From a virus: 64,000 nucleotides of DNA. The DNA lies in the IMG/VR virus record IMGVR_UViG_3300010354_000077, one strand, 5' to 3'. A program made the position numbers and the translations under genes. The notes beneath the pieces are model-generated. The model saw only the letters and a program-made list of their open reading frames with translations, ran no database searches and had not been told where the DNA came from. The number at the start of each line of letters is the position of its first letter. Positions within the stretch are counted from its first letter, which is position 1. Below, in pieces: positions 1,265-63,642 of the stretch.

Positions 1265-2058
1265 TTAAAAAAATATTTCATATAGCAGACCTTCATTTGC
1301 GAAATTATGACAGGCATAACGAATTTATTGAAAGTATAAATCTTTTTTTAAAGGATGTCCGTGATTTTCAACTCCCGTATTATGACGGGGTTATATTGAT
1401 TGCTGGGGATTTATTTGAAACACAGGAACAAGTTTCAAATGAAGCCAATGTTCTTATGGTAAATACACTTAAAGAGTGTTTGAAACTTCATCCGACATTG
1501 ATTATCATAGGCAACCATGACCTCCCAAAGAATAGAACAAGAATGGATGCTATTACACCGTTAGTTAGTGCAATTCAGTCTCCTGACCTAATTTATTCAA
1601 AGAAATCGGAAGTTCTGACCTTAAACCACCAGTTGCATTTTGTTCATTATTGTTTCTTGGATAATTTCGCCGTCCAACCCCCACAAACATCTGATATAAA
1701 AATAGGATTATATCACGCTCCTTTACAGAACTGTAAAAATCCTTTGAATTGGGTGTTTGAGAAGAAGATGTTGGAACATAAAACATCTGTCAGTTTGTTC
1801 AAAGGTTGTGATGTGGTATTGATGGGAGATATTCATTTTCCACAGGAGATAAAGGGCGATGGTTATAGCGCATATTATGTCGGTTCCCTTTACCAACAAA
1901 ATTTTGGAGAGTCTGTTGAAAATCATGGCTATGGAATCTTGGATATTCCGTCATTAAGTTATACCTTTGTGCCGATAAATAACGGCTACGGAAAATATAA
2001 ATGTGTGATTCCAGATGTCAACACACCGCTTGACAAAATGATTATTGTTAACAAATAA
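1261..2058 (+). CDS. Mre11/SbcD-like calcineurin-type metallophosphoesterase nuclease (T4 gp47-like)
   Basis: Motifs FHIADLHL, IAGDLFE and IIGNHD are the classic DxH / GDxxD / GNH[DE] metallophosphatase signatures. Start overlaps the upstream gene (ATGA). Confidence 0.7.
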   Translation: MIKKIFHIADLHLRNYDRHNEFIESINLFLKDVRDFQLPYYDGVILIAGDLFETQEQVSNEANVLMVNTLKECLKLHPTLIIIGNHDLPKNRTRMDAITPLVSAIQSPDLIYSKKSEVLTLNHQLHFVHYCFLDNFAVQPPQTSDIKIGLYHAPLQNCKNPLNWVFEKKMLEHKTSVSLFKGCDVVLMGDIHFPQEIKGDGYSAYYVGSLYQQNFGESVENHGYGILDIPSLSYTFVPINNGYGKYKCVIPDVNTPLDKMIIVNK

Positions 2059-4549
2059 ATCAAAAAACATGATTAGAGACAAATCAGAAATTCAATTAAA
2101 TGTTGAAAGCACTCTTTCTCCTATGGAGAAGGATAAACTCGAACAAGAAATTAAAAAAACTTATGGAGAAAATGTAGTAGTAAAAATCAAAGGTAAAAAA
2201 ATCAGGAACGAAGGTTTTGAAGAAAATCGGGCTAAAATATCCAATAATAATTTGAAGAGCTTATATGAAGGATATTTGGACGATAATTACACTGGCATAG
2301 ACAAAGACCTTTTCTTCCAAATAGATGAGGAAATCGCTGCAATGGTTCCTGATTCAAGTGACGGAGCAAAGCGTTTTAAGATTAAATCTCTTTCTGGAAA
2401 AAACATTTTGTCGTTCAATGAGTTTGAATTGGAATTGGACAAGCGTGGTATCTTGAGGGTCTATTCCACACCTCAAAACATGGGTGGAAAGTCTAACCTA
2501 ATCAGGATTATCAAGTTGCTTCTTTTTGGAGAATTTTATCGTTCAAATCAGGAACGAAGTACGCTTTCAAGTGTTGTGAACAAGTTTTCTCCTTTGAATA
2601 TCGCACACATTGAAGGTGAGATTGAGATTGAAGGTAAGGAATATTTTATCAGGAGGGATTTTACCCGAAATGATAAAGGTAAGGTTTCGCAGAAGATACT
2701 TGTTTCTTCCGAGGGTGCCATTATTGACACTGCACAGTTTGAAACGATGGTCGGCAAGATTAAAGACTTTCTGTTTATTTCATTCTTTGACAGTTTTTCG
2801 ATTGAAAAATGGTTGAATACAAAACCGACTGAAAGGTACCGAATGTTTTTGAATTATTTCGGCCTTGGAAATATCGAAGATAAAGCAAAGATTGGCAAGC
2901 AAAAGTATGATGATTTTCAAAAGAAATCTATTTCGAAGAATCATACGGACATTGACCTTGAAATCAACGATGAAAAAAATAACGTCTTTGAACTGGGAAA
3001 AAAGTGTAGTGAACTCAAAGTAACTCTTGGAGAAGTTGAGGGTAAGCGTGTTGGGTTGGACGGCGAAATAATGAGGTTAAAGAACACACTAAAAGGTGTC
3101 CCAGATTCTTTGTTGAATGAAACAGAAGATTCTATTCGCGAAAAGATAGTTTCTGTTGGTGAAAATATTTCCAAGAAAGAAACTGAAATCGTTTATTTGC
3201 AGAGTACAATTTCCTTTCCTTCCGAAAGCAAAGAAGAGTTGCAGGGAAAAATAAATGATTATCAGGATCAAATAAGCAAGGTTGAGCCAGATAAGGAACT
3301 TCAATCTGAATTGGAAGCCCTTAATTATCTTTACCATGAATATTCTGTGCCTTCTACACTCCATAACCAAAAACTTGATTTGGAGGTTAAGGTTGATTCT
3401 TTGAGGGAGAAGTATGTTATCGAAACCAACAACAAGAAGATAAAAGAGGAGCTTTTGTCAAATACACCTGATACAACCACTTGTAATATCTGCAATGGTA
3501 TTTCGGATAACAAAGAAAAGAAACAACAACTTTCTTTGGAAATCAAACGTATTTCCGATAATCTGAATACGCTTGTTGAGGAAGGTGTTGCAGCGAAAAA
3601 AGAACTTTCGGATTTGGAAGCAGAAATAAAGAATGGTGAGTTGGAATACAAGAAGGGAATAAATAAGGACATTGAGTTGGTTAAAAGCAGAATTGAGGCA
3701 AACAAGCAGCAGAAAATTGATGCCATAAAAAAATCCATTTTCGCCGTCCAATCCCAACTAAACCAAATCAATGATTCAGAAAAATCGCAGTCCAAAACCT
3801 CTCTCCTCAAAGCAGAAATAGAAACATTGTCTGTAAGAAAGAAAGAGTTGGAGGAAAGGTTGAAAAACATGAAAATGTTTAATGACGACCTTTTGTTTAA
3901 TGACAAGATTAACAGTGAAATAAAAAATTTGGAGCAGCAACTTTTCGCCGTCCAATCCTCCCACAGTACCTTGACAGTAGAGTTAAAGTATAATGAAAAA
4001 TTACTTGCAGACGCAGAAGCCAAATTGCAAATGCTTGTAAGTAACAGGGATACGATAGCAAAAGAACTTAAAATTGACAGAGTCTATAAAACCTATATTG
4101 AGGTTCATAGTAAAGGTGGTCTTGCTATGAGGATTTTGAACGACCTAATAGGAGAAATAAACGAAGACCTTGCGGAGATTCTTTCAGAAGACGATTTCAC
4201 ACCTTTTATCAGGATTGAAAATGACGCAATAGAATTTTATTTTGAACGCAAAGGTATGGAGTTTAATATGGCAGAGGGTTCTGGTTATGAAAAAACTGTT
4301 CTCCTGCTTGCCCTACATTATCTCCTCCTTTCTAAGATGGTTGTTCCAGTTTCGAATATTTTTATCTTGGATGAGGTATTCGTTGCAGTAGCACTCCCGA
4401 ATCTGAACAAAGCGTATAACGTCGTTGAAAATTATCTCAATATTTTCGACACTATTTTGTTGATAACACACGTCGAAGAAATCGGTAATTGGTGCTCTGA
4501 CGAAATTAAAATCGAAAAATCTAATAACATCTCAAAAATCATACTCTAA
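2045..4549 (+). CDS. Rad50/SbcC-like SMC ATPase (T4 gp46-like): Walker A, long coiled coil, CxxC zinc hook, Walker B/D-loop
   Basis: N-terminal PQNMGGKSN (Walker A); a long Glu/Lys-rich coiled coil; central CNICNG zinc hook; C-terminal IFILDEVF (Walker B). Confidence 0.7.
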   Translation: MLTNKSKNMIRDKSEIQLNVESTLSPMEKDKLEQEIKKTYGENVVVKIKGKKIRNEGFEENRAKISNNNLKSLYEGYLDDNYTGIDKDLFFQIDEEIAAMVPDSSDGAKRFKIKSLSGKNILSFNEFELELDKRGILRVYSTPQNMGGKSNLIRIIKLLLFGEFYRSNQERSTLSSVVNKFSPLNIAHIEGEIEIEGKEYFIRRDFTRNDKGKVSQKILVSSEGAIIDTAQFETMVGKIKDFLFISFFDSFSIEKWLNTKPTERYRMFLNYFGLGNIEDKAKIGKQKYDDFQKKSISKNHTDIDLEINDEKNNVFELGKKCSELKVTLGEVEGKRVGLDGEIMRLKNTLKGVPDSLLNETEDSIREKIVSVGENISKKETEIVYLQSTISFPSESKEELQGKINDYQDQISKVEPDKELQSELEALNYLYHEYSVPSTLHNQKLDLEVKVDSLREKYVIETNNKKIKEELLSNTPDTTTCNICNGISDNKEKKQQLSLEIKRISDNLNTLVEEGVAAKKELSDLEAEIKNGELEYKKGINKDIELVKSRIEANKQQKIDAIKKSIFAVQSQLNQINDSEKSQSKTSLLKAEIETLSVRKKELEERLKNMKMFNDDLLFNDKINSEIKNLEQQLFAVQSSHSTLTVELKYNEKLLADAEAKLQMLVSNRDTIAKELKIDRVYKTYIEVHSKGGLAMRILNDLIGEINEDLAEILSEDDFTPFIRIENDAIEFYFERKGMEFNMAEGSGYEKTVLLLALHYLLLSKMVVPVSNIFILDEVFVAVALPNLNKAYNVVENYLNIFDTILLITHVEEIGNWCSDEIKIEKSNNISKIIL

Positions 4550-5751
4550 TGGCCAAAAAAAATCTTGCAAATATTTTACCTACTTCTCGATATTGGACGA
4601 GAACGGTGACTAAAATTGCCAAAAGGCAGATGGAATTAAACCCCAAACACCCCTTTCTTTCGAATGAAGAAAAAACACGTTTGTTTTTGGATTGGAAACA
4701 TAACAAAAACATTGAGAGCAGGGACAAGTTGATGGATTCCATGTATGTCTTGGCTCTTCAATTGGTGCATCAATTGATAAATGTCTATGGGAACAACAAC
4801 GTCCCCGTCGAAGACCTCGAACAGGAGGCAAACCATGCCCTTTTGGATATGCTTTGCAACTCTGATTACGACCCTGAAATGGGTACTTTGCCGACATATT
4901 TCAGAACCAGACTGAAAATGTTTTTTCACCCAGCGTTGAAGTCTGGAAACCATATTACGTTACCAGACAATACATGGAAACAGTTTAGTATCGAAAACAA
5001 GGCTTTTAATGCTTTTGTTAAGAAGAATCACAGATACCCAGCACACGGAGAAACATACACGTATAATGGAAGAGAATATTTATTTGGAGATGTAAGTGCG
5101 AAAATGCCCTCTGTTTTGGAAGGCAATAAAACGATAGGTGACGAAGAAGATTCTTTTGAATTGTTTGATTTGATAGGTGAAGCAGACCCTTACTATAACC
5201 TGTCCGAAGAAGAACAAAAACGAGCGACGGTTAGAGAAATTATCCACAAGTTGTCAAAAAGGGAGCAGGAGATTTTACATTATGCTTTTTTCACTGAAAT
5301 GGAGACACAAGATATAGTCTATAATCTGAAACCTTGTTCACCAACAGAAAGAAAGAAGTTGTACACGAAGTCAAAAAATACGTTGGAAATTAAAACATCT
5401 GATGGGAAGCAAGATTACACATTCTTTGTTTATCGGTCTGCCAAAATCAGAAGGTTCGATAGTATAAGTTCCAGTGTAATTGAACCACTTTCACATCCTT
5501 ACAAGACGAATTTTCAATATTCAGATTCACTGAAAATGACCTTTAAATCAACAGATGTACTTTCTGTTTCATTAAACGGTCAAGATATTACAAATCAGGT
5601 CGCTAAATTGGCGGATAATACATTCCAGTTAAATTGTAAATTAAAAGTCGGTTGTGTATTTTCCCAAGCCAATTACAACCATAAACTTTCAAAAATTAAA
5701 GAAAAAATCCGAACAAAAATTGTTGAATATGAAATTTTTAGACCATCCTAA
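4549..5751 (+). CDS. Sigma-70-family RNA polymerase sigma factor-like protein (possible phage middle/late sigma)
   Basis: Region-2-like DLEQEANHALLDML...LPTYFRTRL and region-4-like REQEILHYAFFTEMETQDIV. Confidence 0.5.
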   Translation: MAKKNLANILPTSRYWTRTVTKIAKRQMELNPKHPFLSNEEKTRLFLDWKHNKNIESRDKLMDSMYVLALQLVHQLINVYGNNNVPVEDLEQEANHALLDMLCNSDYDPEMGTLPTYFRTRLKMFFHPALKSGNHITLPDNTWKQFSIENKAFNAFVKKNHRYPAHGETYTYNGREYLFGDVSAKMPSVLEGNKTIGDEEDSFELFDLIGEADPYYNLSEEEQKRATVREIIHKLSKREQEILHYAFFTEMETQDIVYNLKPCSPTERKKLYTKSKNTLEIKTSDGKQDYTFFVYRSAKIRRFDSISSSVIEPLSHPYKTNFQYSDSLKMTFKSTDVLSVSLNGQDITNQVAKLADNTFQLNCKLKVGCVFSQANYNHKLSKIKEKIRTKIVEYEIFRPS

Positions 5752-6004: not shown

Positions 6005-6948
6005 TTAAACTGATAAAAAAGATACAAAGCGAATTTGAAGAGAACCACAAGATAGCTGATAATTTTTTCACTGTTATCATTCTTTTTGTTAGTCTAACCT
6101 CTTTTTTCCACGTGATGGAATATTGGACGCTGACAAATAAAACACCTTTTCATATCATCACTGCGATAGCTACTGAACTATTCATTTTAGGTTCTATGTT
6201 CGCTATTCGATATACTTGGGTGGCCTGGATACCTTTTATTTTTGGTTTCATCGTCCAAAGTGTCGGTAATATTTTCTACTCATACGTCAATATCACTCCT
6301 GACAGTCCTTATTTCCAAGCCTTCATGGAACTGTTCAAACCCATGTTTGAATTGATGTATGGTGACGAACTTGAACTTCTGCATTATAAAAGGTTTTTGG
6401 CTTTTACCAACGGTCTTTTCTACCTGTCTCCGATTATGTTCTTGTGGGCCAAATTGGAGTTGAAGAAAAAGGTTGCCAATATGCCAAAAACTCCGATTGT
6501 AATTGAAGATGATTTGATTGGTAAGTCTATCCCGACAGACAATAACGATGGTGATGATGAACCTGTTATCACACCAGAACCAAAAGACATTGGCTTTGAT
6601 AAACCAGAAGAAGAGATTGAGGTTCAACCAGAGGTTATTCGACCAGAGGTTGTTGAAAATATTGAAGCGGATGTTTTAGATGAACAAGAAACGATTTCAC
6701 AACCTGTCAAAATGAGTTTTGATCCTGTTATAGAACAGGAGCGAAAAAAAAAATTGGAGACTCCAATACAGGCAATAGAAGAGGTTCCAACTGAACCCAC
6801 AGCTACAGAAATTTGGTTGGATATTATCCACGAAATAGCAGATGAAGAAAAAGAAAGGTCAAATAGAAAAGTTAAAAGAACCAATCTAAATCCTTTCAAG
6901 GTCGGTCCCCAAATGAATTTGATGGGATTGAAACCTGATGCAAAATGA
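6001..6948 (+). CDS. Membrane protein with an acidic, Pro/Glu/Val-rich C-terminal region (QPEVIRPEVVE)
   Basis: Several hydrophobic helices at the N-terminus and a low-complexity acidic tail. It contains an A10 homopolymer (about 6744-6753) in frame, encoding KKK. Confidence 0.5.
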   Translation: MIKLIKKIQSEFEENHKIADNFFTVIILFVSLTSFFHVMEYWTLTNKTPFHIITAIATELFILGSMFAIRYTWVAWIPFIFGFIVQSVGNIFYSYVNITPDSPYFQAFMELFKPMFELMYGDELELLHYKRFLAFTNGLFYLSPIMFLWAKLELKKKVANMPKTPIVIEDDLIGKSIPTDNNDGDDEPVITPEPKDIGFDKPEEEIEVQPEVIRPEVVENIEADVLDEQETISQPVKMSFDPVIEQERKKKLETPIQAIEEVPTEPTATEIWLDIIHEIADEEKERSNRKVKRTNLNPFKVGPQMNLMGLKPDAK

Positions 6949-7438
6949 TTTTATGCCAAGCGAAGGTTTTTCTTTGCTTGGCATATTTATTTTTAACCGA
7001 AACAATGTTATGTTTGATAAAGAAGCTCAAAATATATTAAATCAAATCAAGAATTATAGGTTTCTGCTTGAGCAGGATGACCTTGAAGAAAATAATTTGG
7101 ATGTCACCAAAGGGGATTTGCCAAAAGACAATGCTTTTTTTGTGCAGATGCAAACAGATTTAAGCGCCGCTATAAAATATAGCACCGTAGTGGTAGATTA
7201 TTTGAGGGTAGATGCCAATGACATGAGCAAGCCTTTGGTTACTGCTGCTGGTAAGATTGGTGGAATAGATTTTGTTTTTGATAATGACGGTGTGCATATC
7301 ACCATGAATGATATGGTAGTTACAGACAGGACACCAGATGTAATAAAAACTTTGAATGTATATTACGGTTATAAATTCAAAACAATTGAAAAAGAAATTA
7401 TTGAAGCATTAATAAAAAACAAAGGAAAAATACAATGA
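6938..7438 (+). CDS. Hypothetical protein
   Basis: 166-aa ORF in operon context, starting at ATGA overlapping the upstream stop. No recognisable motifs. Confidence 0.45.
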   Translation: MQNDFMPSEGFSLLGIFIFNRNNVMFDKEAQNILNQIKNYRFLLEQDDLEENNLDVTKGDLPKDNAFFVQMQTDLSAAIKYSTVVVDYLRVDANDMSKPLVTAAGKIGGIDFVFDNDGVHITMNDMVVTDRTPDVIKTLNVYYGYKFKTIEKEIIEALIKNKGKIQ

Positions 7439-9096
7439 AAAAAGAATATCTAAAAAGGATTAAGTTCGTCAGCGAGAATAAGATGGTGGTGGACGGCGAA
7501 CATAAGGTAACAAAAAATGCTGGACCTAAAAAAGGGTTCATTTTCAATGGCAAAGACGGTTCAAAATTGAAGTTTCAAACCGAAGAAGAACTGTTTGAAT
7601 TTCTTGATGAAATGACAGACAGTAGCTCTGCTGGTGGCATGGAACTTCCTTTTGTGCCAGCGTCAGACAGTGAATTTAAAAACAGAAAAGCAGCGCCTTA
7701 TAACCAAGTCGTAACTGGTCTTTACACTGAAAGTGAAGCGGTTGCCCTTGCTGAAAAAATGGTGAAAGAGGCTCTTGTTTCGGAGGCAAGCGGTGATTAT
7801 CCTGCGAAAGAGATGATTGAGAAATACAAAGCAGCGAATAAGAAAGAGAGTGAAAAGGCAATAAAAGATATTGAGGAGGGAATTAAAATCGTTTATGAAA
7901 AGCCGTTGGCTGCGTTTCCACCAAATTATTATCGTGATGACAACGATTATAACAAAGACGGTGTTCCGAATCAATATAAAAACAATAACACTCTTTTGGA
8001 TTTAAAATATGATGGAATCACTGACGAAGCAAAAGAATGGTTCACGTCTCAAATCAAAGCTGGTGGAAAAACTGCTGAAGATATGGCAAAGGCAGCCAAA
8101 AGGAAAGCAGAAATTCAAGATAAAAACCCTCTAAACGATGCTGTTTATGTTGGTAATGACATGGAATTGTCAAAAGTCAACACAGAAAAATCAAAAGACG
8201 GTATGCCAAGAACAGGTGTTGCCATGCTTGGATTCTCATTAAACGAAAATAAAATGTATAAATTCAAATTCGAATCTGATAAATATGATTTCGGAAGGAA
8301 CAGGGCACAGCTTGCCGAAGCTATTCCGAACAAAGTGAAACAAGATAACACCAAATTCCAGATGCAAGACGGAAAAGGAAATCTTTTTATGTTGGAATGG
8401 GCAAATGGTGAAGCTGTTATTTTGGAACATCGCAATCTGATTGCGGAGCAGAAATTGAATGAGAAGGTGGATAAACTTTTCAACTATAATAACACCGAAA
8501 AGAGGCCGAAGCAGAAAAAGGTTGATTTTGATTATTTTACGAAGGAGAAAAAAGATTTGAAGGAAAGTGTTGAAAACGAATCTTTAACTCAATATGGAAT
8601 TAAAGAATTGAGAGATGGTTTAACATTTGAAGATATAAAAACAAAGTTCCCTTGGATTTTGGAGGCTAAAATTGAAAACGCTGTTTTGGGGTTATTAGAT
8701 AAAAAATTTTTAATTTGGTATGATGTTGACTGGTATGATGGTGACTTATATAAAAGTATTTGGAAAAATGGTCGATGGTATAGTGGAAGTTGGTATGATG
8801 GTATTTGGTATGATGGTATTTGGTATGATGGTATTTGGAAAGGTGGTGAGTGGAAAAATGGGATTTGGAAAAACGGTATTTGGAATTATGGTCATTGGGA
8901 AAAAGGAGTTTGGTACGACGGTATTTGGAAAAACGGTATTTGGGATGGGGGTTATTGGTTTGGAGGCACATGGGAACAAGGAAAAATACCAGATAGTAAA
9001 CTTCGGCCCCAAGGTGACACAGAAGATTATATTACAGTGGAATTTCCACCTAATAAATACAAATATTTACAACCAAAAACTCCTAAAAAACCATGA
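7435..9096 (+). CDS. Protein with C-terminal tandem W-x-x-G-x-W (MORN-like) repeats
   Basis: The C-terminal 85 aa are WYDGIWYDGIWKNGIW...; the underlying DNA (8720-8960) is a 15/30-bp tandem repeat, tggtatgatggtatt. Confidence 0.55.
   Translation: MKKEYLKRIKFVSENKMVVDGEHKVTKNAGPKKGFIFNGKDGSKLKFQTEEELFEFLDEMTDSSSAGGMELPFVPASDSEFKNRKAAPYNQVVTGLYTESEAVALAEKMVKEALVSEASGDYPAKEMIEKYKAANKKESEKAIKDIEEGIKIVYEKPLAAFPPNYYRDDNDYNKDGVPNQYKNNNTLLDLKYDGITDEAKEWFTSQIKAGGKTAEDMAKAAKRKAEIQDKNPLNDAVYVGNDMELSKVNTEKSKDGMPRTGVAMLGFSLNENKMYKFKFESDKYDFGRNRAQLAEAIPNKVKQDNTKFQMQDGKGNLFMLEWANGEAVILEHRNLIAEQKLNEKVDKLFNYNNTEKRPKQKKVDFDYFTKEKKDLKESVENESLTQYGIKELRDGLTFEDIKTKFPWILEAKIENAVLGLLDKKFLIWYDVDWYDGDLYKSIWKNGRWYSGSWYDGIWYDGIWYDGIWKGGEWKNGIWKNGIWNYGHWEKGVWYDGIWKNGIWDGGYWFGGTWEQGKIPDSKLRPQGDTEDYITVEFPPNKYKYLQPKTPKKP
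8720..8960 (+). repeat. In-frame tandem DNA repeat (unit about 15 bp, ggtatttggtatgat) encoding GIW[YK][DN]G repeats
   Basis: Directly visible as repeated gtatttggtatgatggtatttgg and ggtatttggaaaaacggtatttgg. Confidence 0.8.
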
Positions 9097-9353
9097 AAAT
9101 AGAATCATATAATAACAACCGTTATATACACGTCACCGATGCACCGAGTGTGGATTTTTGGTGGGATAACTTGCTCCAGCAATTTGCAAACAAGAGCACA
9201 GTACAACAACTGGTTTTGAACCGTGACGAAATCGCTCTTTCTTGTGCGACCATCTGTGCTGGTTCACCTATCAATTGCTGTGAAGACTCATTGCTTGCAA
9301 ATAATCTGGATTGCTTGTTTACGAACGATTACGAGTGCATCGTTAGTAACTAA
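9093..9353 (+). CDS. Small Cys-rich protein
   Basis: 86 aa with 8 Cys (CATICAGSPINCCEDS...C...C). Confidence 0.4.
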   Translation: MKIESYNNNRYIHVTDAPSVDFWWDNLLQQFANKSTVQQLVLNRDEIALSCATICAGSPINCCEDSLLANNLDCLFTNDYECIVSN

Positions 9354-9779: not shown

Positions 9780-10019
9780 ATGTTTGATGACAAATATAAG
9801 GAATTGGAAAAAGAATTGGAGGAATATGAAAAAGAGTATTTCGCCGTCCAACCCACCCTTTCAGACGCAAAGGAAAGACATAAAATGGAATTGCTCCCAT
9901 ATATAAATGAAATAAAGTCAGGTAAGAAATATCATAAGAAAGGAGGCAGCAGTTTATTCTATAAATTGAAGGTATGGTATTGGAGATTTATTATGAGACT
10001 TTATTATAAGCTCCGTTAA
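9780..10019 (+). CDS. Small Lys/Glu-rich hypothetical protein
   Basis: 79-aa ORF divergent from the 9361..9771 gene. It contains one copy of the dispersed motif, read as YFAVQP. Confidence 0.3.
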   Translation: MFDDKYKELEKELEEYEKEYFAVQPTLSDAKERHKMELLPYINEIKSGKKYHKKGGSSLFYKLKVWYWRFIMRLYYKLR

Positions 10020-10684
10020 TGCCTTGTACTCCTTCTTTTAAATTGGAAATGGGATAACCCAGTCAGTTTTACCAAACGCTTTATCAAATCAATTTTTATT
10101 TCTCTGGGCTTTTCTGGTACTTTACCTACGAAAAGGAAAGAATATATTTTCTTGGAGTGGACGGCGTTTTTCAGAAATTCATAAAGTCGCTTACATTCAG
10201 ACATATTTTTAGTGAGGATACATTCCAGGTCTTCCCCAGACTCCAAGACGATTTTATTTTTGAATGTCTTGACAGTCGTAAAGTCTTTGACGTATAACAA
10301 AAACACCTTTTCCAATAACTGTTCGACATTATATCTGCGCTTTTGGCCGTAAACGTAAAAGGTTTCTTCGACAAGGTACTCCTGCTGTTTGATTATCTTT
10401 TTTTCGGTGCCATGTTCTTCGACAAATAACAATAACTTCCTGTCCAAAGAAACAGCCTTCTTGTTGGCTTTGAATCTTTTAGGGTATGTGACATTTTTTT
10501 TATTTTCCTCCAAAGTTTTTTGATAAAAACTTGAAGTTTCCTTATATTTGTCGGAGGAAAACAATTTTTTAAGTTTTTTGGAATTAGACAAATAACACAC
10601 AAACATCCTTAAATATATGAACTGGATAACGATTTTACTCAAAAGCAGCAGAAAAAAGAAGCATATTATCAAAGGTATCGCCAA
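10016..10684 (-). CDS. Hypothetical protein (true start possibly the internal MFVCYLSN)
   Basis: 222-aa ORF with no recognisable motifs. Confidence 0.4.
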   Translation of the reverse strand: MAIPLIICFFFLLLLSKIVIQFIYLRMFVCYLSNSKKLKKLFSSDKYKETSSFYQKTLEENKKNVTYPKRFKANKKAVSLDRKLLLFVEEHGTEKKIIKQQEYLVEETFYVYGQKRRYNVEQLLEKVFLLYVKDFTTVKTFKNKIVLESGEDLECILTKNMSECKRLYEFLKNAVHSKKIYSFLFVGKVPEKPREIKIDLIKRLVKLTGLSHFQFKRRSTRH

Positions 10685-22858: not shown

Positions 22859-22869
22859 CCAACCACAAA

Positions 22870-46466: not shown

Positions 46467-46467
46467 T

Positions 46468-52268: not shown

Positions 52269-52679
52269 TTAAACCAATCTTTTTTCCATCAATTGCAGGA
52301 TTTCTGATTTCTGGTGGAACGGGTTGAGTTGTTCCAAAGAATCAACCAGCAGCATTCCTTCCATATCTCGCACAAGTTGCCCACCCTTGTCAGATTTCTT
52401 ATTCGATGCAGAGTAATATGCTCCGAACATATATTTCAATGTAACGGGGTTTGGTTCGCCTGTGATTTCAAATTTAATCACCTCATTCATTTTTATATCT
52501 CCAGCAGTTTCCTTTGCCTTGTCTGAAGCGAATTTGAAATCCTTAAAAGATTTTTTGGTTGTCCTCAAAACCTTTGCTTTTTTATTTCTGGAAACTTGAA
52601 ATTCATCCCCTTCTTCGAGTTTGGCGAAGAGTTCTTGGATGTGGACGGCGGATTTTTCTCCTTGAAATTTGAATGACAT
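52269..52679 (-). CDS. Hypothetical protein
   Basis: 136-aa ORF. Confidence 0.45.
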   Translation of the reverse strand: MSFKFQGEKSAVHIQELFAKLEEGDEFQVSRNKKAKVLRTTKKSFKDFKFASDKAKETAGDIKMNEVIKFEITGEPNPVTLKYMFGAYYSASNKKSDKGGQLVRDMEGMLLVDSLEQLNPFHQKSEILQLMEKRLV

Positions 52680-53454: not shown

Positions 53455-53984
53455 TTTTTGGGTTTATTTTGTTTCCTGAAAACAGAAGGCTTTATCTTTT
53501 CGCCGTCCACACCCCAAAGACCTACTTTATTAGCTTGAGCAGTTTTTTGAAGACCAAGATAAAAAGACCTTTCATTCTTTGTCATGTCATTAGAAACATA
53601 GTACCATGCCCAACCTTTAGTGATTAAATGGGTTGTCATATCAGTGGTACCAAGTTTCACCTTTGCCACCCTCCTGCCATAAAAGTCCCTGTATAACGTA
53701 TCAACAAGAACCCGTTTTTGTTTAATCAGAAGCCTTACAGAATCGCCAGCCTCCGTACCAAAAACCTGTGTGTGGGCAACATAGTTGGATTGAACTTCTG
53801 GTGCATCAGCGCCCCAAAGACGGACCCAAAAAGCCTTTTTTTCGCCGTCCATCAAGACCTTGTAACTATCACCATCATGCACAGCCATTACTGTTGCGTT
53901 TGGTTTAAATTGGATTGTGTCTTGGGATTGGACGGCGAATGTAAATCCAAGGATTAAAGAAAAGGTTAAAAGAATTTTTTGCAT
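53451..53984 (-). CDS. Secreted staphylococcal-nuclease-like thermonuclease (SNase domain)
   Basis: Signal peptide, then VHDGDSYKV...VRLWGADAPE (SNase motif). Confidence 0.65.
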   Translation of the reverse strand: MQKILLTFSLILGFTFAVQSQDTIQFKPNATVMAVHDGDSYKVLMDGEKKAFWVRLWGADAPEVQSNYVAHTQVFGTEAGDSVRLLIKQKRVLVDTLYRDFYGRRVAKVKLGTTDMTTHLITKGWAWYYVSNDMTKNERSFYLGLQKTAQANKVGLWGVDGEKIKPSVFRKQNKPKK

Positions 53985-53994: not shown

Positions 53995-54273
53995 TTAAAG
54001 ATATGTTTGTGTTAAGTACTGCATGGCAAGCGCAACCTCGACTGAAGATTTTAGATAATTGCAAAATGCCATCTGATATGTTTTTCCAGCGATGATTTGA
54101 ATGAGAAGAATGTTAACATATTCACCCTCAAATTCCAGTTCAAAGTTAAAGAATTTATTTCCCTTTAACCAAAAAGTCATTTTTGAACTGGAATTGATTT
54201 CGCCGTCCACCCCATAACCATCCTTCTTTGAAAGAAGGTTATCTACAAGATTTTTAATTTCTGTTTGTTCCAT
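53995..54273 (-). CDS. Small hypothetical protein
   Basis: 92-aa ORF. Confidence 0.35.
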   Translation of the reverse strand: MEQTEIKNLVDNLLSKKDGYGVDGEINSSSKMTFWLKGNKFFNFELEFEGEYVNILLIQIIAGKTYQMAFCNYLKSSVEVALAMQYLTQTYL

Positions 54274-55487: not shown

Positions 55488-56159
55488 TTATAGGTTAAAA
55501 ATTGTTTGAAGACTTATCCCCAAAACATTCATTCTCGCATATCGCTTTAGTTGTTCTGTCACATCTTGGTTATAATAGATTCCAGCGCCGACAGAAAAGT
55601 TATTGAAGCTCCTATATATCCCTGTTTCAAATCTGATTAGAGTACCAGATTGTTTAACTGGTTTTGAAACGAAGAATTTTTTCAGTTCATTTCTCGCTAC
55701 ATCATTTCTGACCGAGTTTACAATCGTAGCTGTCCCAAAGCCTTTATCTATTACATAGACGAATGATGTTTTACCTTGAATTGTCCAACCATTGTTTAGA
55801 AGGAAATCTTTTCTTATTCCTATCTCTCCTTTAAACATTGGTTTTTGGAGGGTGGACGGCGAAGTGGAAACTCCTGTGGAAATAAACAGTGGAATTTTTT
55901 CGTGCCATATTTCGCCGTCCACCCCAAAAACAGGATTAAAACAATACGATTGAACCCCATAGACTTCCTTAAATTCATCGAAGGTGAGATTATCATTAAA
56001 GGAAATAGCCACCAGCCGATAGAGGTTGTAAAGGGATGTTTGCTGATAATCTGTTTTGTGGAAAACAAACGCACTTCCGCCGTCCACCCCCAAATCAAAA
56101 TGAATTTGTGAAAATAGAACAGAGGGAAAAAATAAAAGAAAGAAAACAAGTTTTTTCAT
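55488..56159 (-). CDS. Secreted protein, possibly outer-membrane beta-barrel-like
   Basis: Signal peptide MKKLVFFLLFFPSVLFSQ; alternating pattern; C-terminal Phe-x-Leu end. Confidence 0.4.
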   Translation of the reverse strand: MKKLVFFLLFFPSVLFSQIHFDLGVDGGSAFVFHKTDYQQTSLYNLYRLVAISFNDNLTFDEFKEVYGVQSYCFNPVFGVDGEIWHEKIPLFISTGVSTSPSTLQKPMFKGEIGIRKDFLLNNGWTIQGKTSFVYVIDKGFGTATIVNSVRNDVARNELKKFFVSKPVKQSGTLIRFETGIYRSFNNFSVGAGIYYNQDVTEQLKRYARMNVLGISLQTIFNL

Positions 56160-56161: not shown

Positions 56162-56644
56162 TTAAGAATTTTCAAGTTTTAATAGAAATTGCATCCATTT
56201 CGGGTGGTCAATAGTCTCACTGCCAAAGATTTTAAATTGCTCAAGATTTTTCCTTAAATCCAAAGACAGGATTTTTTTTTGTTCCTTGGTCATCAATTCA
56301 AAATATTCTTCTGTTATGTCGTCAGGAAGCATGGCAGACGCAATTGTCTGCCTGTTCATTGCATAAAGAATGGCCGACCTTATCAAGGTAAAATCAATGT
56401 CTGATATTTTACTTTCCTCGTTTAGCTTATATCCGACACAAGATTTGTCCAAAGCCTCAATCAATTCCAAATGGTCTTGAACTTGAAATTCGCTTAGGAT
56501 TCTTTCTCTATCAAATTCGCTTATCAGCGGCCAATAATGGTTTACAAATTCTTCGGGTTCGGCTAAACATGGCACATTTTCATAGGCTTGAATATGTCGA
56601 AGGGCCATCCAAAAGATTGTTCTTTTTGTTTCGTTCATAATCAA
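56162..56644 (-). CDS. Hypothetical protein
   Basis: 160-aa ORF. Confidence 0.4.
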   Translation of the reverse strand: MIMNETKRTIFWMALRHIQAYENVPCLAEPEEFVNHYWPLISEFDRERILSEFQVQDHLELIEALDKSCVGYKLNEESKISDIDFTLIRSAILYAMNRQTIASAMLPDDITEEYFELMTKEQKKILSLDLRKNLEQFKIFGSETIDHPKWMQFLLKLENS

Positions 56645-57249
56645 CAGTTTTTAATATATTCCCCCCACTGCTCTGCCATTGCTTCAGCGATGCCAGTGTA
56701 GGTTTTCGACCTGATTTTTGCTCTGTCTTTCGAGGGACCGAGCTTGTTTTGTCCACTGGGGGTTTGATTGTCCCAATAAGGAGTTGTTTTTTCAAGAATA
56801 TTTGTCGGAACAAGTTTTGGTAGATTTTTCAACCAAAGACAAGTTTTTTTGGACTCTGGATGACCATATTCGTAGGGTTGAATAATTTGGTCAGGCTTCC
56901 GATATTTGGTGCTCATAACACAAATAGGGTTTTCAATTGCTATATGTGGAGCATTCGCATTTACCAATCGCATAAAAAATTCTACGGCATCTTCCTGAAG
57001 GCTCCAAGGTTTTTTTCCTTCTGTAAACCAACGGGCACCGCTCACAGATAGATGTGTGCAGGGAGGGTGAGCAATTATTAAATCCCAATCGCCGTCCAAC
57101 ACCGACAAAACATCTCCTTGAATATGCCATTCAGGATGGCCACCGCTACATGATGCAACGTCACAAGAGAATGCTTCAAATCCTTTGTTTCTGAATGCTT
57201 TTGTTACCGTTTGAGATTCTTCACAGGCAACCAGTATTTTTTTGCTCAT
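56641..57249 (-). CDS. Short C5-cytosine-methyltransferase-like protein (catalytic PC motif; no recognisable target-recognition half)
   Basis: IIAHPPCTHLSVSG has the same spacing as C5-MTase motif IV GFPCQAFSISG. It is only 202 aa, so possibly a partial or divergent pyrimidine-C5 enzyme. Confidence 0.35.
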   Translation of the reverse strand: MSKKILVACEESQTVTKAFRNKGFEAFSCDVASCSGGHPEWHIQGDVLSVLDGDWDLIIAHPPCTHLSVSGARWFTEGKKPWSLQEDAVEFFMRLVNANAPHIAIENPICVMSTKYRKPDQIIQPYEYGHPESKKTCLWLKNLPKLVPTNILEKTTPYWDNQTPSGQNKLGPSKDRAKIRSKTYTGIAEAMAEQWGEYIKNC

Positions 57250-58935: not shown

Positions 58936-59646
58936 TTATTTAATCACTGTTACGTTTCCATAAAACAAACCCCTTTCTCCACCCAATTCCAAACCCAAAA
59001 CCCAAACATAAACTCCAGCGGGTACATTTAAACTAAGCCAACCCTCGCTTGGGGTATTAGGCAAAAAATTCCTCCGTTCCCAAACAAGGCTACCCCACCT
59101 GTTATAAACTGCCATGTATTCTATCCTTTCGATATTCAAGTCATCTGAAACAAACGGGTATAGTACATCATTACCAGAAGAATAAGGTGCTACCGCATTT
59201 GGGACATATATTCCATCGGGTAACATTTTACCGCTGTTATTGTTCGGATTGTTAACAACAATTGTATCATTTCCAGGCGGAATCTTTCTACAATCAAGGA
59301 TTGAATAGACACTGTTCTTATAGTAAACCAATCCAGAGAAGTTATATTCTGTTTTTTTCACCTGTACTGTTCCTGTGCTTTTCCAGTGGACGGCGAAAGT
59401 GTCAAGGTGGGGGAGTGTGTCGTATGGCGGCCAGAAAACATAGTCTTCGGGAATTGTCACATAATGTTTGTTTCCTTCCTCCAAAGTAAAAATAGTACCG
59501 TTCTGCTGCATGGTTGATCCCATGAATTGGGTGTTGACAAAATAACTGGTGTCATTTACGCAAACATAAACAGTGTCAGTAAATTCACATTGTGCATCAA
59601 CTGCAAATGGAAGAAGCAGAAAGAAACGGATTAAAATATTTTTCAT
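58936..59646 (-). CDS. Secreted protein
   Basis: Signal peptide MKNILIRFFLLLPFAVDAQC. Confidence 0.4.
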   Translation of the reverse strand: MKNILIRFFLLLPFAVDAQCEFTDTVYVCVNDTSYFVNTQFMGSTMQQNGTIFTLEEGNKHYVTIPEDYVFWPPYDTLPHLDTFAVHWKSTGTVQVKKTEYNFSGLVYYKNSVYSILDCRKIPPGNDTIVVNNPNNNSGKMLPDGIYVPNAVAPYSSGNDVLYPFVSDDLNIERIEYMAVYNRWGSLVWERRNFLPNTPSEGWLSLNVPAGVYVWVLGLELGGERGLFYGNVTVIK

Positions 59647-60291: not shown

Positions 60292-62358
60292 TTACAACCT
60301 CGCCTCTGTCATAGCGCGGGAGACGGTTTCCCAAGGGGTGTTCTCGTCAAATACCAGTTCGGCACTATCCCTATCCGAAACAATATCGGAAGACAACATA
60401 TTCAGGATATGTCCTTGACCGAACTTGTTCCAATTCACTTCAGTGCTGCCATCATCAATCAATGCAATATTCTTCGTGAATGAAAGAATTTTTTTCGCAT
60501 TGGCATCATTCGTAACATTCGATTCATTCTGTGCCACATCCAAATAAACTACACAACTGTTTACCACGTCAATAGCAAAGAGGTAAGCAGATGAAGATTT
60601 GGATTCAATCTTAATCGCGTTCTCTACCGTTTCGGGGAGCCAAAGGTTGTTCGCTTCGGGAAATTCACGGAGCATGAAACCAGCATGGACACCAGCACCA
60701 CCCCAACGATTAAAATTGGGGCCACTATAGACTTTAGCATCACATATCACCCAAGTGATACCCATAGAACGGAGTTTTTTCAAGTCAAAGTCGAGATATT
60801 CGGCATTCTTATAAGAACGGCCTGTGTTATCACCACTGTAAACCACAGCATCCGAGAATTTGTAACTTCCATTCCAGCCGATTTTTTCCACAAAACCGTT
60901 TTCAGTGAAAATGAATGCAGAAAGATCAATGTCGTACCTATCCACCCAATGAACATAAGCGCGAATAACTTTTTTGCCATCAAACTTCAAACTCGTACCA
61001 GTAGTGATGTTATTGATAGAGTTGGAAGAAGCACGGTTGTTGGTAGCGATAGGCGAAAAGTAAAGTTTCCTGTCAATGTAAACTTTCTTATTCGTCTTCG
61101 AAACAACACTATCCATAGCAGATTTCAACTTCGCTTGGATAGCATCCACGACCTTCACATCCATAGCAGTCTGTGTACCAAAACTGTTGACCTTCGATGC
61201 AGATTCAGAAGCCAGCACAACCGACCTTTCTTTATCATATCGCCGTCCATCAAAGTAATTGTACAGCGTAACCAACTGTTCAAAAGAAGGTTTTGCATTG
61301 ACAAAAGCATCAATGGTTTCAATTCCGAAAACAGAATAAAGTTCGTTGATTCGGCGCATGAAATAACCTTTTCGCTTTGAAAGCAACCTAAAAACGCTCA
61401 CATCCTTGTTACGAAGAGCCTCTTCAACCCGCGAAGCAAATGTTCGGAGTTGCTTTGGTTGATTACGCAGAAGGTCTGCATATTTCGCAACCATTTTATA
61501 TGCTTTACGATTTTTAGCTGTAAGCGGATTCAAGTAAAAAAGAACCTTCAACCACTTTTCACGGTTTGTCTTGAAAGCCTCTTCGAGATCACCACAAGCA
61601 TTCAAAGCATAAAGAATAGCTCTCTTCTCACGGTTTGACAGTTTTCGGAACTTTACATTCTCCTTCAAACCAGCATCGCCACCAGAAGAGACTGCATATA
61701 TACGAAGAATTTCGTTTGCAGAATTTATGCTGGGGAGTTGGCCATAGGCAAGTGAAATGGAACCGACAAAAGCCTTCGTCTCAAGGAAAGGGATTTTGTT
61801 GTACTCATAACCATAATCATGGTTGATGAACCACTCGACAATAGCTTTATCATTGTTTGACAATGAATCACCACTGTAAATCAAATCATAAAAGATGTTA
61901 TCGAATGTCTCCTTTGAGATAAGCGATACAGGTTTCAGATTTACACACTCGACCTTAAATTCGCGGCTAAGGTGTGCATCATCTTCAGGTCTCCAAGCAC
62001 CAAAAGTAATGTAGTGCAGGAACGCATTAAGAAAAAGCAACTCGTCAGAAGCGTTTAAAACGGCCTGTGGGAAGTTTTTGTAGATGGGTTCATAACCACC
62101 GTCACCATAGAGATTTTTCAAACCTGAAACGATGTCATTGTAAACCGTTTGCAGCGTAGCGTCATTTTGGGTAATGAGATTGGAAAACAACCGTTTATCA
62201 AGAATGAATCCATGTGACATAAGTTCATGGTTAATCCTGTTTACAATCAGTCTGCCGCCGCCATTGTTGTAAATGTCTTCGGGATTGTCGTAAAAGTTGT
62301 TTGGATTTTCTGCAAGGTGTATTCCTTTCAGTTTTTGGAAAGAGATGAAGTGTTGCAT
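60292..62358 (-). CDS. Large hypothetical protein (688 aa)
   Basis: Long ORF with no motif I could assign. Confidence 0.5.
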   Translation of the reverse strand: MQHFISFQKLKGIHLAENPNNFYDNPEDIYNNGGGRLIVNRINHELMSHGFILDKRLFSNLITQNDATLQTVYNDIVSGLKNLYGDGGYEPIYKNFPQAVLNASDELLFLNAFLHYITFGAWRPEDDAHLSREFKVECVNLKPVSLISKETFDNIFYDLIYSGDSLSNNDKAIVEWFINHDYGYEYNKIPFLETKAFVGSISLAYGQLPSINSANEILRIYAVSSGGDAGLKENVKFRKLSNREKRAILYALNACGDLEEAFKTNREKWLKVLFYLNPLTAKNRKAYKMVAKYADLLRNQPKQLRTFASRVEEALRNKDVSVFRLLSKRKGYFMRRINELYSVFGIETIDAFVNAKPSFEQLVTLYNYFDGRRYDKERSVVLASESASKVNSFGTQTAMDVKVVDAIQAKLKSAMDSVVSKTNKKVYIDRKLYFSPIATNNRASSNSINNITTGTSLKFDGKKVIRAYVHWVDRYDIDLSAFIFTENGFVEKIGWNGSYKFSDAVVYSGDNTGRSYKNAEYLDFDLKKLRSMGITWVICDAKVYSGPNFNRWGGAGVHAGFMLREFPEANNLWLPETVENAIKIESKSSSAYLFAIDVVNSCVVYLDVAQNESNVTNDANAKKILSFTKNIALIDDGSTEVNWNKFGQGHILNMLSSDIVSDRDSAELVFDENTPWETVSRAMTEARL

Positions 62359-62690: not shown

Positions 62691-63347
62691 TTAAGGTTTT
62701 GTTAAATATTTTGACCATATTCCCATAAGGGTCGGATTCTTGCTACTTAGGATTCTTTTTTTCTGGAAGAGAATCAAATCGTTTTTATTTATGTATCCGT
62801 TCTCATCAAAATCCAAAGCAGCGTTATTTTCAATGTTACATAAAGTATCTGTGTTCATTGGGGTGGACGGCGAAAGGTTTATTTGGTGAAGGTCAGCAGC
62901 GGTTTTGATTTTGTTTGCTTTACCTGTGGCCTTAATAAAAAGGTAAAGGTATTCTGCTTGATCTTCAAAAGCCTTGTCTGTGATGTTTGAGGGTATATCC
63001 AAATAAAATCTTGTAGCCCTTGTCCATTGAAATAACCCTTGAGCATCAATTGAGTTTTTTGCTTGTGGGTTCCAACCGCTTTCACAATAGGAAACAATTA
63101 GTGCGTAGTCTGCGAAGGTGGACGGCGAAATGGATAATCCCTCTGGGAGCAATTTTTCACCGACCTTTTCAAAGATTTTATGGTACTCCCGCACCTGATA
63201 AATCTGTTTGTCTGTTGTCTGGATTACTTCGCCGTCCACCTCCTCTCTTTTCGCCGTCCAATCCCCCACATACCCCAAAGCAGATAGTAACACGAATGTA
63301 CCAGTAAATAATATCTTTCTTTTGTTAAATCTTTTATTTTTTATCAT
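62691..63347 (-). CDS. Secreted lytic-transglycosylase-like (SLT motif) protein
   Basis: Signal peptide, then YCESGWNPQAKNSIDAQGLFQW. Two tandem motif copies encode GDWTAKREEVDGEV just after the signal peptide. Confidence 0.45.
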   Translation of the reverse strand: MIKNKRFNKRKILFTGTFVLLSALGYVGDWTAKREEVDGEVIQTTDKQIYQVREYHKIFEKVGEKLLPEGLSISPSTFADYALIVSYCESGWNPQAKNSIDAQGLFQWTRATRFYLDIPSNITDKAFEDQAEYLYLFIKATGKANKIKTAADLHQINLSPSTPMNTDTLCNIENNAALDFDENGYINKNDLILFQKKRILSSKNPTLMGIWSKYLTKP

Positions 63348-63642
63348 CTATAGTCTTTTTAACAGAGTTGTAAATATTCGCCAGCATTTCTACTGACATT
63401 TTTGTGGAGATAACATTCCAATCGTGAATGGAATCTGTAAGCTCATTTACCGAAACCACCACCAATTCGCCGTCCATATACCGCACAGCAAAAATATGAT
63501 TATAAAGAGATGTGGCACAGGTAGAGGATAATAGAAATTCTCCTCCATTAAAGTTGGGAATAAGCATTCTTGCTATTTCCGAAACAAATTCCTGTTTAAA
63601 TTGCTCGTTGGTTTCTACCCACCTTTGGTAAACGTCGTTCAT
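63334..63642 (-). CDS. Small hypothetical protein
   Basis: 102 aa, with a TAtcTTTG box at about 63663-63670 upstream (minus strand). Confidence 0.4.
   Translation of the reverse strand: MNDVYQRWVETNEQFKQEFVSEIARMLIPNFNGGEFLLSSTCATSLYNHIFAVRYMDGELVVVSVNELTDSIHDWNVISTKMSVEMLANIYNSVKKTIDDKK

Follow-up and report, generated by a model that had tools for sequence, protein, structure and literature searches.

We describe here a short word of DNA, the 9-mer CGCCGTCCA, that recurs dozens of times along the genome of a large tailed phage and is best read as a recognition word private to one phage lineage. The DNA that was analyzed, referred to below as the window, is a 64-kb stretch of the viral record IMGVR_UViG_3300010354_000077, out of a metagenomic contig of 66.7 kb. 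The window contains 71 exact matches to CGCCGTCCA, 39 on the plus strand and 32 on the minus strand. By comparison, 100 shuffles that preserved dinucleotide composition averaged 0.10 matches and never contained more than 2, which corresponds to an enrichment of ~700-fold over expectation. In an unbiased k-mer count, CGCCGTCCA or its substrings and superstrings ranked top among the 8-, 9-, 10-, and 12-mers of the window, and once CGCCGTCCA was masked only A/T-rich words were left. A first-pass annotation, made from the sequence alone, had reported about 70 copies of a GC-rich word in this stretch; the shuffles and the k-mer count agree that the 9-mer is enriched and make the observation stronger than it was stated. 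A 9-mer with 78% GC is especially unexpected in this setting because the GC content is 35 to 44% along the window and 36% overall. The identical sequence with the same copies was found in independent assemblies of other samples, and the word is therefore not an assembly artifact; SRR5216639, SRR28926349, and ERZ27275033 are among the samples in which the phage is present. A literature search on the word itself returned primers and reporter genes only.

Alignment of the copies revealed an element that is longer than its core. The aligned copies read W (at position -4), T, T, T, then CGCCGTCCA, and then M, C, C, C, which agrees with the T-rich 5' flank, the C-rich 3' flank and the consensus of ~17 nt given in the first-pass annotation. 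G or C is never found at -2 and G is never found at +9. In addition, the motif strand 3' of the core is C/A-rich and G-poor as far as about +25 to +30, a feature absent from that annotation. The element as a whole is strongly asymmetric and consists of ~17 informative positions, about 8 of which lie beyond the 9-nt core, followed by a compositional tail of about 15 nt that is G-poor and C/A-rich. The extended form of the word is written as WTTTCGCCGTCCAMCCC, as distinct from the bare 9-mer. No longer unit is common to the copies: conservation ends at -4 on one side and +13 on the other, and the best pairwise extension is 23 nt. Perfect and one-mismatch copies stand at 71:11, where 3.7 one-mismatch copies are expected by chance, an excess of +15%. 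The spacing of the copies across the window is Poisson-like (coefficient of variation 1.02), with a density of about 1 per 1.6 to 1.9 kb per orientation and per-strand gaps of up to 9.9 kb, and the order of orientations along the 64 kb is random (runs test z = 0.69). The position of copies inside genes is uniform (Kolmogorov-Smirnov p = 0.18), and the number of copies per gene shows mild heterogeneity only.

The word is laid over coding sequence. More than 90% of the copies are genic, and these are spread over 35 different open reading frames (ORFs). When orientation and frame were scored on a simple, non-overlapping ORF set (95% coding), 63 of the 71 copies (89%) fell into three of the six possible classes:

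Sense class encoding (F/x)AV(Q/H), 24 copies
Sense class encoding (S/T/P)PS(T/N/I), 16 copies
Antisense class encoding (L/V/M)DG(E/V/G/D), 23 copies
The three classes that force RR or W, 6 copies together
Intergenic, 2 copies

The claim that copies occur in all reading frames is thus literally true but misleading. Public gene calls shift the copies at 9538, 22678, 22802, and 25870-25913 from doubtful short ORFs to intergenic DNA and the copy at 9842 to the FAVQ class. By these calls up to about 8 copies are intergenic, which is close to the non-coding fraction. The flank preferences (T or A at -2, T at -1, C at +10 and +12) are alike within every frame class, and because they are identical in each class they are not codon artifacts. 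A protein repeat was rejected as the source of the word, given the three frame classes, both orientations, the 35 ORFs and the intergenic copies; the earlier view of a DNA motif rather than a repeated peptide is upheld by the several frames, the two orientations and the flanks that do not change with frame class. Peptide positions that are compatible with the word are encoded by it in 68 of 81 cases (84%), whereas the codon usage of the genome would predict 0.7. Moreover, the compatible tetrapeptides occur 22 to 25 times each, compared with 2.6 to 4.2 times in shuffled proteins, and are thus over-represented 5- to 10-fold. Since the compatible positions are near-saturated and the compatible tetrapeptides are themselves enriched, selection on the DNA word has changed protein sequences. 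Sense copies outnumber antisense copies 41:28 in the window, and 9 of the 10 copies in two giant genes are sense, where a coding-strand preference of roughly 2:1 had been reported earlier; the ratio in relatives is 135:151, however, so the preference is local and not a property of the element.

To follow the gain and loss of copies, word sites were compared at the codon level with diverged relatives at 30 to 76% amino acid identity, as direct DNA alignment covers just 4 sites. Two sites are common to the window and its relatives, 17 occur in the window only, and 19 in a relative only. Of 36 differences between orthologs at word sites, 34 are free of insertions and deletions (indels), and the orthologs of a pair differ at 3 to 8 of the 9 core bases. 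For example, TTC GCC GTC CAA (FAVQ) stands opposite TTT GCA CTG CAA (FALQ), and GAC GGC GTT stands opposite GAT GGG GTA, both of which encode DGV. The copy in the thymidylate synthase gene (ThyA), HVYNNQVDGVYEQ, lies in a conserved segment and aligns gap-free to HLYQNHVEQMQEQ and HLYSNHMDQTHLQ of solved thymidylate synthases. Both results support the earlier proposal that the word arises by substitution under selection, with no change in length, and not by insertion. Copies are made in place by point substitution where the encoded protein tolerates the word. In relatives that are ~96% identical, 11 of 11 comparable sites are intact and 0 of 99 core bases have changed, where about 4 changes are expected. 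Purifying selection keeps the copies intact while their turnover takes place over long periods, and the density of the word nears saturation of the tolerated coding contexts. A mobile mini-element, such as a miniature inverted-repeat transposable element or a repetitive extragenic palindrome, was rejected because the 34 of 36 differences lack an indel, no longer unit exists, and nearly all copies sit in genes. A promoter of a sigma-like factor, with a sigma-like protein as the reader, was likewise rejected because the copies are uniform inside genes, occur in both orientations and lack a second conserved upstream box, as was an RNA-guided target because base-specific conservation stops at +13. 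A DnaA box and a sigma-54 or extracytoplasmic function (ECF) promoter were also considered and rejected.

The copies are listed below by position, strand, and coding context; giant ORFs 1 and 2 are the two giant genes mentioned above. The first-pass annotation had placed 69 of the 71, missing those at 3057 (minus) and 9538 (plus), and five of its coordinates were about 10 nt off (12230, 53509, 32138, 33047, and 35158 are corrected to 12222, 53501, 32128, 33037, and 35148, respectively).

1668-1676, plus, sense, FAVQ
3057-3065, minus, antisense, LDGE
3742-3750, plus, sense, FAVQ
3946-3954, plus, sense, FAVQ
7490-7498, minus, antisense, VDGE; conserved in relative L157
9538-9546, plus, doubtful ORF; probably intergenic by public gene calls
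9842-9850, plus, FAVQ in publicly called gene 9780-10019 (plus)
10158-10166, minus, sense, NAVH
12222-12230, plus, sense, SPST
12297-12305, plus, sense, SPST
16100-16108, minus, antisense, rare class GGRR
16555-16563, plus, sense, SPSI
17413-17421, plus, sense, TPSN
18454-18462, plus, sense, FAVH
19358-19366, minus, antisense, VDGE
20115-20123, plus, sense, IAVH
20195-20203, minus, antisense, LDGV
21237-21245, minus, antisense, VDGV; conserved ThyA segment, without indel
21959-21967, minus, antisense, LDGV; conserved in L005, substituted in L188
22678-22686, plus, short doubtful ORF; probably intergenic
22802-22810, plus, short doubtful ORF; probably intergenic
23472-23480, minus, intergenic; left arm of inverted pair
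23494-23502, plus, intergenic; right arm of inverted pair
23980-23988, plus, sense, SPST
25870-25878, minus, left arm of inverted pair; intergenic by public gene calls
25894-25902, plus, right arm of inverted pair; intergenic by public gene calls
25913-25921, plus, tandem to 25894; intergenic by public gene calls
27737-27745, plus, sense, FAVQ
28146-28154, minus, antisense, VDGV
28513-28521, plus, sense, TAVH
30372-30380, minus, sense, FAVQ (giant ORF 1)
32128-32136, minus, sense, SPSN (giant ORF 1)
32596-32604, minus, sense, SPSN (giant ORF 1)
33037-33045, minus, sense, SPSN (giant ORF 1)
35148-35156, minus, sense, FAVQ (giant ORF 2)
38365-38373, plus, antisense, VDGG (giant ORF 2)
39013-39021, minus, sense, SPST (giant ORF 2)
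39046-39054, minus, sense, SPSN (giant ORF 2)
39552-39560, minus, sense, SAVQ (giant ORF 2)
39631-39639, minus, sense, SPSN (giant ORF 2)
40576-40584, plus, antisense, LDGE
40849-40857, plus, antisense, VDGE
41289-41297, minus, sense, IAVQ
41332-41340, plus, antisense, LDGV
41421-41429, minus, sense, NAVQ
43840-43848, minus, antisense, LDGV
44069-44077, plus, sense, SAVQ
44285-44293, plus, sense, FAVH
44414-44422, plus, sense, FAVQ
45107-45115, plus, sense, FAVQ
47692-47700, minus, sense, SAVQ
48916-48924, minus, sense, PPST
49222-49230, plus, antisense, LDGE
49522-49530, plus, antisense, LDGE
50703-50711, minus, sense, FAVQ
52642-52650, minus, sense, SAVH
53501-53509, plus, antisense, VDGE
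53843-53851, plus, antisense, MDGE
53929-53937, minus, sense, FAVQ
54201-54209, plus, antisense, VDGE
55853-55861, minus, sense, SPST
55913-55921, plus, antisense, VDGE
56078-56086, plus, antisense, VDGG
57090-57098, plus, antisense, LDGD
59387-59395, minus, sense, FAVH
61241-61249, plus, antisense, rare class DGRR
62864-62872, minus, sense, SPST
63119-63127, minus, sense, SPST
63230-63238, plus, antisense, VDGE
63252-63260, plus, antisense, rare class WTA
63468-63476, plus, antisense, MDGE

Carriers of the word all belong to one clade of large, uncultured phages. When 2.9 million viral contigs were scanned completely for one 16-mer, 18 stretches were recovered, and every multi-copy stretch was low in GC; a looser scan of the viral contigs gained further stretches. 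The dense contigs all interlink by translated similarity via a 136-kb contig and therefore form one clade, and no unrelated virus dense in the word was found among the 2.9 million contigs. The GC content of the clade is 30 to 39%, and the density of the word is ~0.5 copies/kb in members of ~31% GC and ~0.9 to 1.3 copies/kb in members of ~36% GC, with the same extended consensus in both. Pooled clade DNA, which is redundant, holds 414 copies in 483 kb. As a marker for relatedness that does not depend on the word, a conserved VWA protein was used, and core copies were counted per 22 kb around its homologs:

L316, marker identity 55%, GC 31%, 16 core copies per 22 kb
L319, marker identity 51%, GC 33%, 16 core copies per 22 kb
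L317, marker identity 44%, GC 44%, 1 core copy per 22 kb
L318, marker identity 35%, GC 42%, 0 core copies per 22 kb

L316 and L319, found independently of the motif, show the same flanks, with C and T about equal at -1. No substitute enriched word was found in the sister phages L317 and L318. A complete scan of 241 million metagenome records for ATTTCGCCGTCCAMCCCA yielded 63 stretches. All of the dense ones are low in GC (32 to 42%) and are either clade members or one 40-kb contig that corresponds to a phage replication module with a helicase, a clamp, and an RNA ligase; the remaining ~40 stretches are single chance matches in high-GC DNA. None of the 241 million records was a cellular contig dense in the extended word, where a host at similar density should give ~100 matches per genome. 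For genomes of cellular species, the matches listed (at least 120) include only scattered single chance ones in high-GC genomes, which says little about the host.

Beside an uptake signal, the first-pass annotation had set other possibilities: a site at which a phage-specific protein binds, nicks, or modifies the DNA, or a recombination signal that works together with an Mre11/Rad50-like nuclease. Explanations of this class are the candidates that are now favored. Because position, spacing, orientation, and coding context all appear irrelevant, the benefit of the word would scale simply with copy number on both strands. The identity of the word across phages at 35 to 60% protein identity and of differing GC, together with its absence from sister phages, other viruses, and cellular DNA, makes it most likely that the reader travels with the phage genome. 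Words that are set by the host, such as Chi and the dialects of uptake sequences, differ from one host genus to another. Our current hypothesis, to which we give a probability of roughly 0.35, is that this phage lineage marks its own DNA by sequence, and not by base modification, and that a phage-encoded nuclease/helicase, packaging motor, or primase-helicase tells viral from host DNA; a private Chi-like self tag, taken jointly with the generic notion of a phage-owned reader, receives the same figure. A DNA-tracking enzyme would read the word strand-specifically on unwound, single-stranded DNA, and the word would act as a "self" tag, in effect a private Chi-like signal, that tells an end-processing helicase/nuclease to halt degradation and begin recombination-dependent replication. 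The phage's own exonuclease/SbcCD (gp46/47-like) recombination machinery could be this enzyme, and host DNA, without the word, would be consumed. The specific step of nuclease attenuation is a tentative suggestion that we consider doubtful. Chi, too, is read as single-stranded DNA by a translocating enzyme, and the word is found in a phage with recombination functions. Phages are known to accumulate Chi, to about 1 per 1.9 kb, when it is helpful to them (PMC12315714). The C-rich motif strand around the copies is predicted to be unstructured (-4.8 versus -9.3 kcal/mol in GC-matched controls, p 8e-16) and its complement slightly more structured than controls. The low predicted structure of the motif strand fits a reader that acts on one unwound strand.

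Several points weigh against this hypothesis. The strand folding used RNA energy parameters, and low structure restates the depletion of G. To the best of our knowledge, no phage-encoded Chi-like system has been described, and known Chi words are 5 to 8 nt long while the word here is at least 9 nt. The reader may also be encoded by the host, and the metagenome scan needed the flanks, so that a host carrying the bare 9-mer at modest density would escape it. Chi in Chi-rich phages is strongly biased in orientation, toward the open DNA end (20:3), and those phages lack a Rec module of their own (PMC12315714), whereas orientation here is unbiased and a Rec module is present. Candidate readers were tried and neither was confirmed. 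The gene at 7450-9096 (plus), just 3' of the nuclease module, encodes a 548-aa protein whose N-terminal ~370 aa are conserved and whose C terminus varies. Its 25 homologs among 5.8 billion proteins lie essentially all in the clade, which makes it a reader candidate by distribution only, and its structure model was unusable (pLDDT 42, from a 12-sequence alignment). The gene at 56641-57249 (minus) encodes a 202-aa protein that matches phrog_757 "DNA methyltransferase" at 6e-72 with no Pfam or NCBIfam hit, and its homologs are annotated as (cytosine) DNA methylases in >1,400 phage records. This putative methyltransferase was rejected as a clade-specific reader because those records come from unrelated phages; its single-sequence model had a pLDDT of 35.

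Among other explanations, the least improbable is that the word is the target of a phage-encoded, sequence-specific modifying or nicking enzyme, either as an epigenetic self mark or with nicks from which clamp loading, recombination, or late transcription could start. Nickases and homing-type enzymes use long asymmetric sites of this kind, the window encodes several nucleases and a sugar-nucleotide/glycosyltransferase cluster besides the putative small methyltransferase, and the nick-associated motifs of T5-, phiKMV-, and tf-like phages are likewise phage-specific asymmetric consensus sequences with a phage function. We nonetheless regard it as unlikely, since a modification site alone would not explain why copies keep being selected for at a cost to the encoded proteins and the methyltransferase-like gene is so widespread. 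Furthermore, known nick motifs occupy one strand only and number from a few to about a dozen in each genome (PMC3517423), as opposed to about 130 copies on both strands for the word, or 71 per 64 kb, and they do not saturate coding sequence. The word could instead be the Chi of the host RecBCD/AddAB. Like LLS or P1, the phage would have gathered copies that protect its DNA from degradation at the ends and promote recombination-dependent growth. The complement of the word, TGGACGGCG, resembles known Chi in being rich in G and has a G/T-rich tract on its 5' side. GT-rich islands occur near Chi, although a preprint on sequence context near Chi holds nothing on them. Chi in LLS and P1 is also over-represented, has one G-rich strand and acts by copy number on linear DNA, and its density in LLS, 1 per 1.86 kb, is comparable to that of the word per orientation (PMC12315714). 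Both orientations would be required if the genome ends were permuted. Set against this, the word stands 39:32 in orientation beside SbcCD and an exonuclease, unlike the 20:3 bias of LLS, which has no Rec genes of its own (PMC12315714). Chi is a word of the host, enriched in the host chromosome, whereas the present word is private to a phage clade, and 9 nt plus flanks exceeds the information of any known Chi. No other phage lineage carries the word, though co-infecting phages of one host should share it, and it is identical across phages that are likely on different hosts. A host Chi is accordingly improbable in our estimation. A packaging or self-recognition signal, in which a terminase or packaging accessory protein prefers word-bearing DNA so that capsids fill with phage DNA, would account for a rare, long, phage-private word whose benefit rises with copy number and which is needed anywhere on a permuted genome. 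Known pac sites are single loci, however, whole genomes are packaged so that the benefit per copy should saturate early, and a strand asymmetry of 30 nt fits a duplex-translocating motor less well; we rate this proposal as quite improbable.

The chance is slimmer that the word directs lagging-strand priming, with a phage primase-helicase that starts RNA primers at the word (which contains GTC) and a G-poor tract that keeps the template unstructured. The predicted lack of structure of the C-rich strand agrees with this, as does the spacing of 1 per ~1.6 to 1.9 kb per strand, which resembles prokaryotic Okazaki fragment lengths; both strands would be required if forks run both ways, and in AT-rich DNA a primer made on a GC-rich core would be stable. 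The sites read by known primases are 3 nt long, however, so that one of at least 9 nt would be costly, the spacing is no more even than random, with per-strand gaps to 9.9 kb, and sister phages with similar replication genes do without the word. The first-pass annotation had likened the word to the DNA uptake sequence (DUS; GCCGTCTGAA and dialects) of Neisseriaceae and the uptake signal sequence (USS; AAGTGCGGT / ACAAGCGGT) of Pasteurellaceae, which would imply a competent host that prefers the word and a phage that gains it by the same drive or for entry by transformation. In architecture the analogy stands. A short asymmetric core, directional flanks, a density of ~1/kb on both strands and a mostly genic location are common to all, as are the preference for frames with tolerable peptides, the enrichment of encodable peptides, gain by substitution, inverted-pair terminators, and few imperfect copies (PMC2817400; PMC3630211). 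Peptide enrichment is about 2-fold for USS/DUS (PMC2817400) and 5- to 10-fold here, and the one-mismatch excess of the word sits at the tight end of the +15 to +45% range of DUS (PMC3630211). The six bases GCCGTC are also shared with the Neisseria DUS. Aligned on them, though, the word reads GCCGTC-CA-M-C, with CCA in place of the CTG at +6 to +8 that is essential in every DUS dialect and C in place of A at +10, so that its membership among the DUS is not supported. A host uptake signal is disfavored as well: DUS and USS saturate the chromosome of a competent host and act via the competence machinery, whereas no such machinery is visible here, the word is seen only in the phage lineage and in no cellular genome sampled, and every dense stretch in the complete metagenome scan is phage. 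The word is absent from unrelated viruses and from sister phages, and it is invariant across deeply diverged phages while DUS dialects shift between genera. Host uptake is the reading most directly contradicted by the data, and we consider it very improbable. Least probable of all is a non-adaptive drive, in which sequence-specific repair or biased gene conversion turns near-matches into the word although the phage gains nothing from it. Such a bias has been proposed for very-short-patch repair and for HIP1 (GCGATCGC), the highly iterated palindrome of cyanobacteria, which is hyper-abundant, GC-rich, present in coding and non-coding DNA and kept by selection or drive, not mobility. HIP1 is a palindrome, chromosomal, and thought to be linked to a methyltransferase, whereas the word here is asymmetric and viral. 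The few imperfect copies and the in-place gains by substitution would suit a drive, to which the small methyltransferase-like gene could belong. However, orthologs differ at 3 to 8 of the 9 core bases, more than a repair bias that acts on single mismatches could bridge, the number of one-mismatch copies is no lower than chance (11 versus 3.7 expected), and known repair drives give ~2-fold enrichment, not 700-fold.

The known genome-wide words that are selected for copy number, USS/DUS, Chi, the FtsK orienting polar sequences (KOPS), and HIP1, come from cellular chromosomes, and phages borrow the words of their hosts. The word described here appears to belong to the virus. Two things set it apart among genome-wide recognition words: its apparent ownership by a virus, and how strongly it has marked the proteome, since selection has brought the word into 84% of the coding contexts open to it and has altered amino acid sequences. 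If the private self tag is true, the virus would own an equivalent of Chi or DUS, one that has left a visible mark on its proteome. If, in addition, the reader is phage-encoded, the system would represent a new form of viral self/non-self DNA discrimination, by a sequence tag instead of hypermodified bases, and would provide an orthogonal word-reader pair. The word is also a one-line diagnostic of the clade in metagenomes and a clean natural experiment on the reach of DNA-level over protein-level selection.

Inverted pairs and degenerate copies of the word form hairpins, and the three that had been proposed earlier are borne out (the first, second, and third below):

22867-22895, plus, intrinsic-terminator-like hairpin with a T run after it, made of a degenerate half copy (AAAAACGCTGTC/GACGGCGTTTTT); -16.7 kcal/mol, z -5.3
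23469-23505, plus, terminator-like hairpin of an inverted copy pair, 3' of gene 22935-23456; 14-bp stem; -22.3 kcal/mol, z -6.7
25868-25903, plus, hairpin of an inverted copy pair between genes; -26.9 kcal/mol, z -4.1
41289-41340, minus, intragenic inverted copy pair, 34 nt apart, long hairpin possible; -26.3 kcal/mol, z -3.7

The hairpins of the pairs 23472/23494 and 25870/25894 and of the degenerate half copy are stable and lie where genes end. From these predicted structures, inverted pairs of the GC-rich word may serve secondarily as transcription-terminator stems, as do those of DUS and USS.

The genome that carries the word has the gene content of a large tailed phage. A recombination nuclease module at 35-4549 encodes an exonuclease, an SbcD-like protein, and an SbcC-like protein, and other phage genes encode VWA proteins, a thymidylate synthase of canonical type, and a Suv3-type helicase, the last accompanied by an RNase H-like gene. 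A near-identity search against deposited phages found no near relative; among annotated phages, Ackermannviridae and Aeromonas phiA8-29-like myoviruses come closest, with about 31% amino acid identity. Directly after the SbcD/SbcC-like genes, 4549-5751 (plus) encodes a 400-aa protein with weak but consistent matches to the sigma-70 family (regions 2 and 4), a placement that recalls that of the T4 late sigma gene near genes 46/47. The thymidylate synthase (20333-21415, plus; match 3uwl, 7e-71) contains an insertion of ~40 residues (query 209-248) that is unmatched in solved homologs, besides a Lactobacillus-type small-domain insert. The two giant ORFs are neighbors at 28640-34327 (minus; 1,895 aa) and 34361-40024 (minus; 1,887 aa) and have no Pfam hit on record. 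Their region has a GC content of 42 to 44%, compared with 35 to 38% elsewhere, shows many internally repeated matches to relatives, and, in a relative of 96% identity, matches at no more than 68% or has been rearranged, which suggests mosaic, fast-evolving fiber-like genes. The cluster at 43815-47777 encodes a HAD-phosphatase/sugar-nucleotidyltransferase fusion, GT92 and GT8 glycosyltransferases, and a Methyltransf_24 protein, where the matching locus in relatives carries epimerase/GT2/GT11 genes, and may glycosylate DNA or the virion.

Further observations concern the sister phages and smaller features. The motif-free L317 (7338-8477) and L318 (13847-15229 and 20154-21488) carry adenylosuccinate-synthetase-like (PurZ-like) genes, and L318 also has an adenylosuccinate lyase gene, a gene content which suggests that 2-aminoadenine (Z) is present in their genomes. 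The pooled clade DNA, about 480 kb, yielded no PurZ-like gene; the window carries a dGTP_diPhyd_N (MazZ-like) gene at 21607-22431. In L319, a 790-aa gene at 6800-9172 with Hint/intein-splicing and LAGLIDADG domains occupies the place of the 424-aa RNA ligase gene of L316 and is probably an intein-containing version of it. An Rfam search of the window returned one tRNA only, a tRNA-Met (CAT) at 24749-24820 (plus). Behind it lie two terminator-like hairpins rich in A/T, one at 24824-24856 and the other at 24893-24922. The 688-aa protein of 60292-62358 (minus) resembles the MXAN_6230/SCO0854 RING-domain family (NCBIfam 2.9e-40, below its cut-off) and phrog_33734, which is unusual for a phage. Lastly, the commonest word left after masking of the main motif is the palindromic 8-mer AAATATTT, with 20 sites (e.g., 12874, 18538, 19628, 24720, 42300, and 62679). 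Six of the 20 sites are intergenic or at gene edges, compared with an intergenic fraction of 5%, and AAATATTT may be a promoter-type element of the phage.

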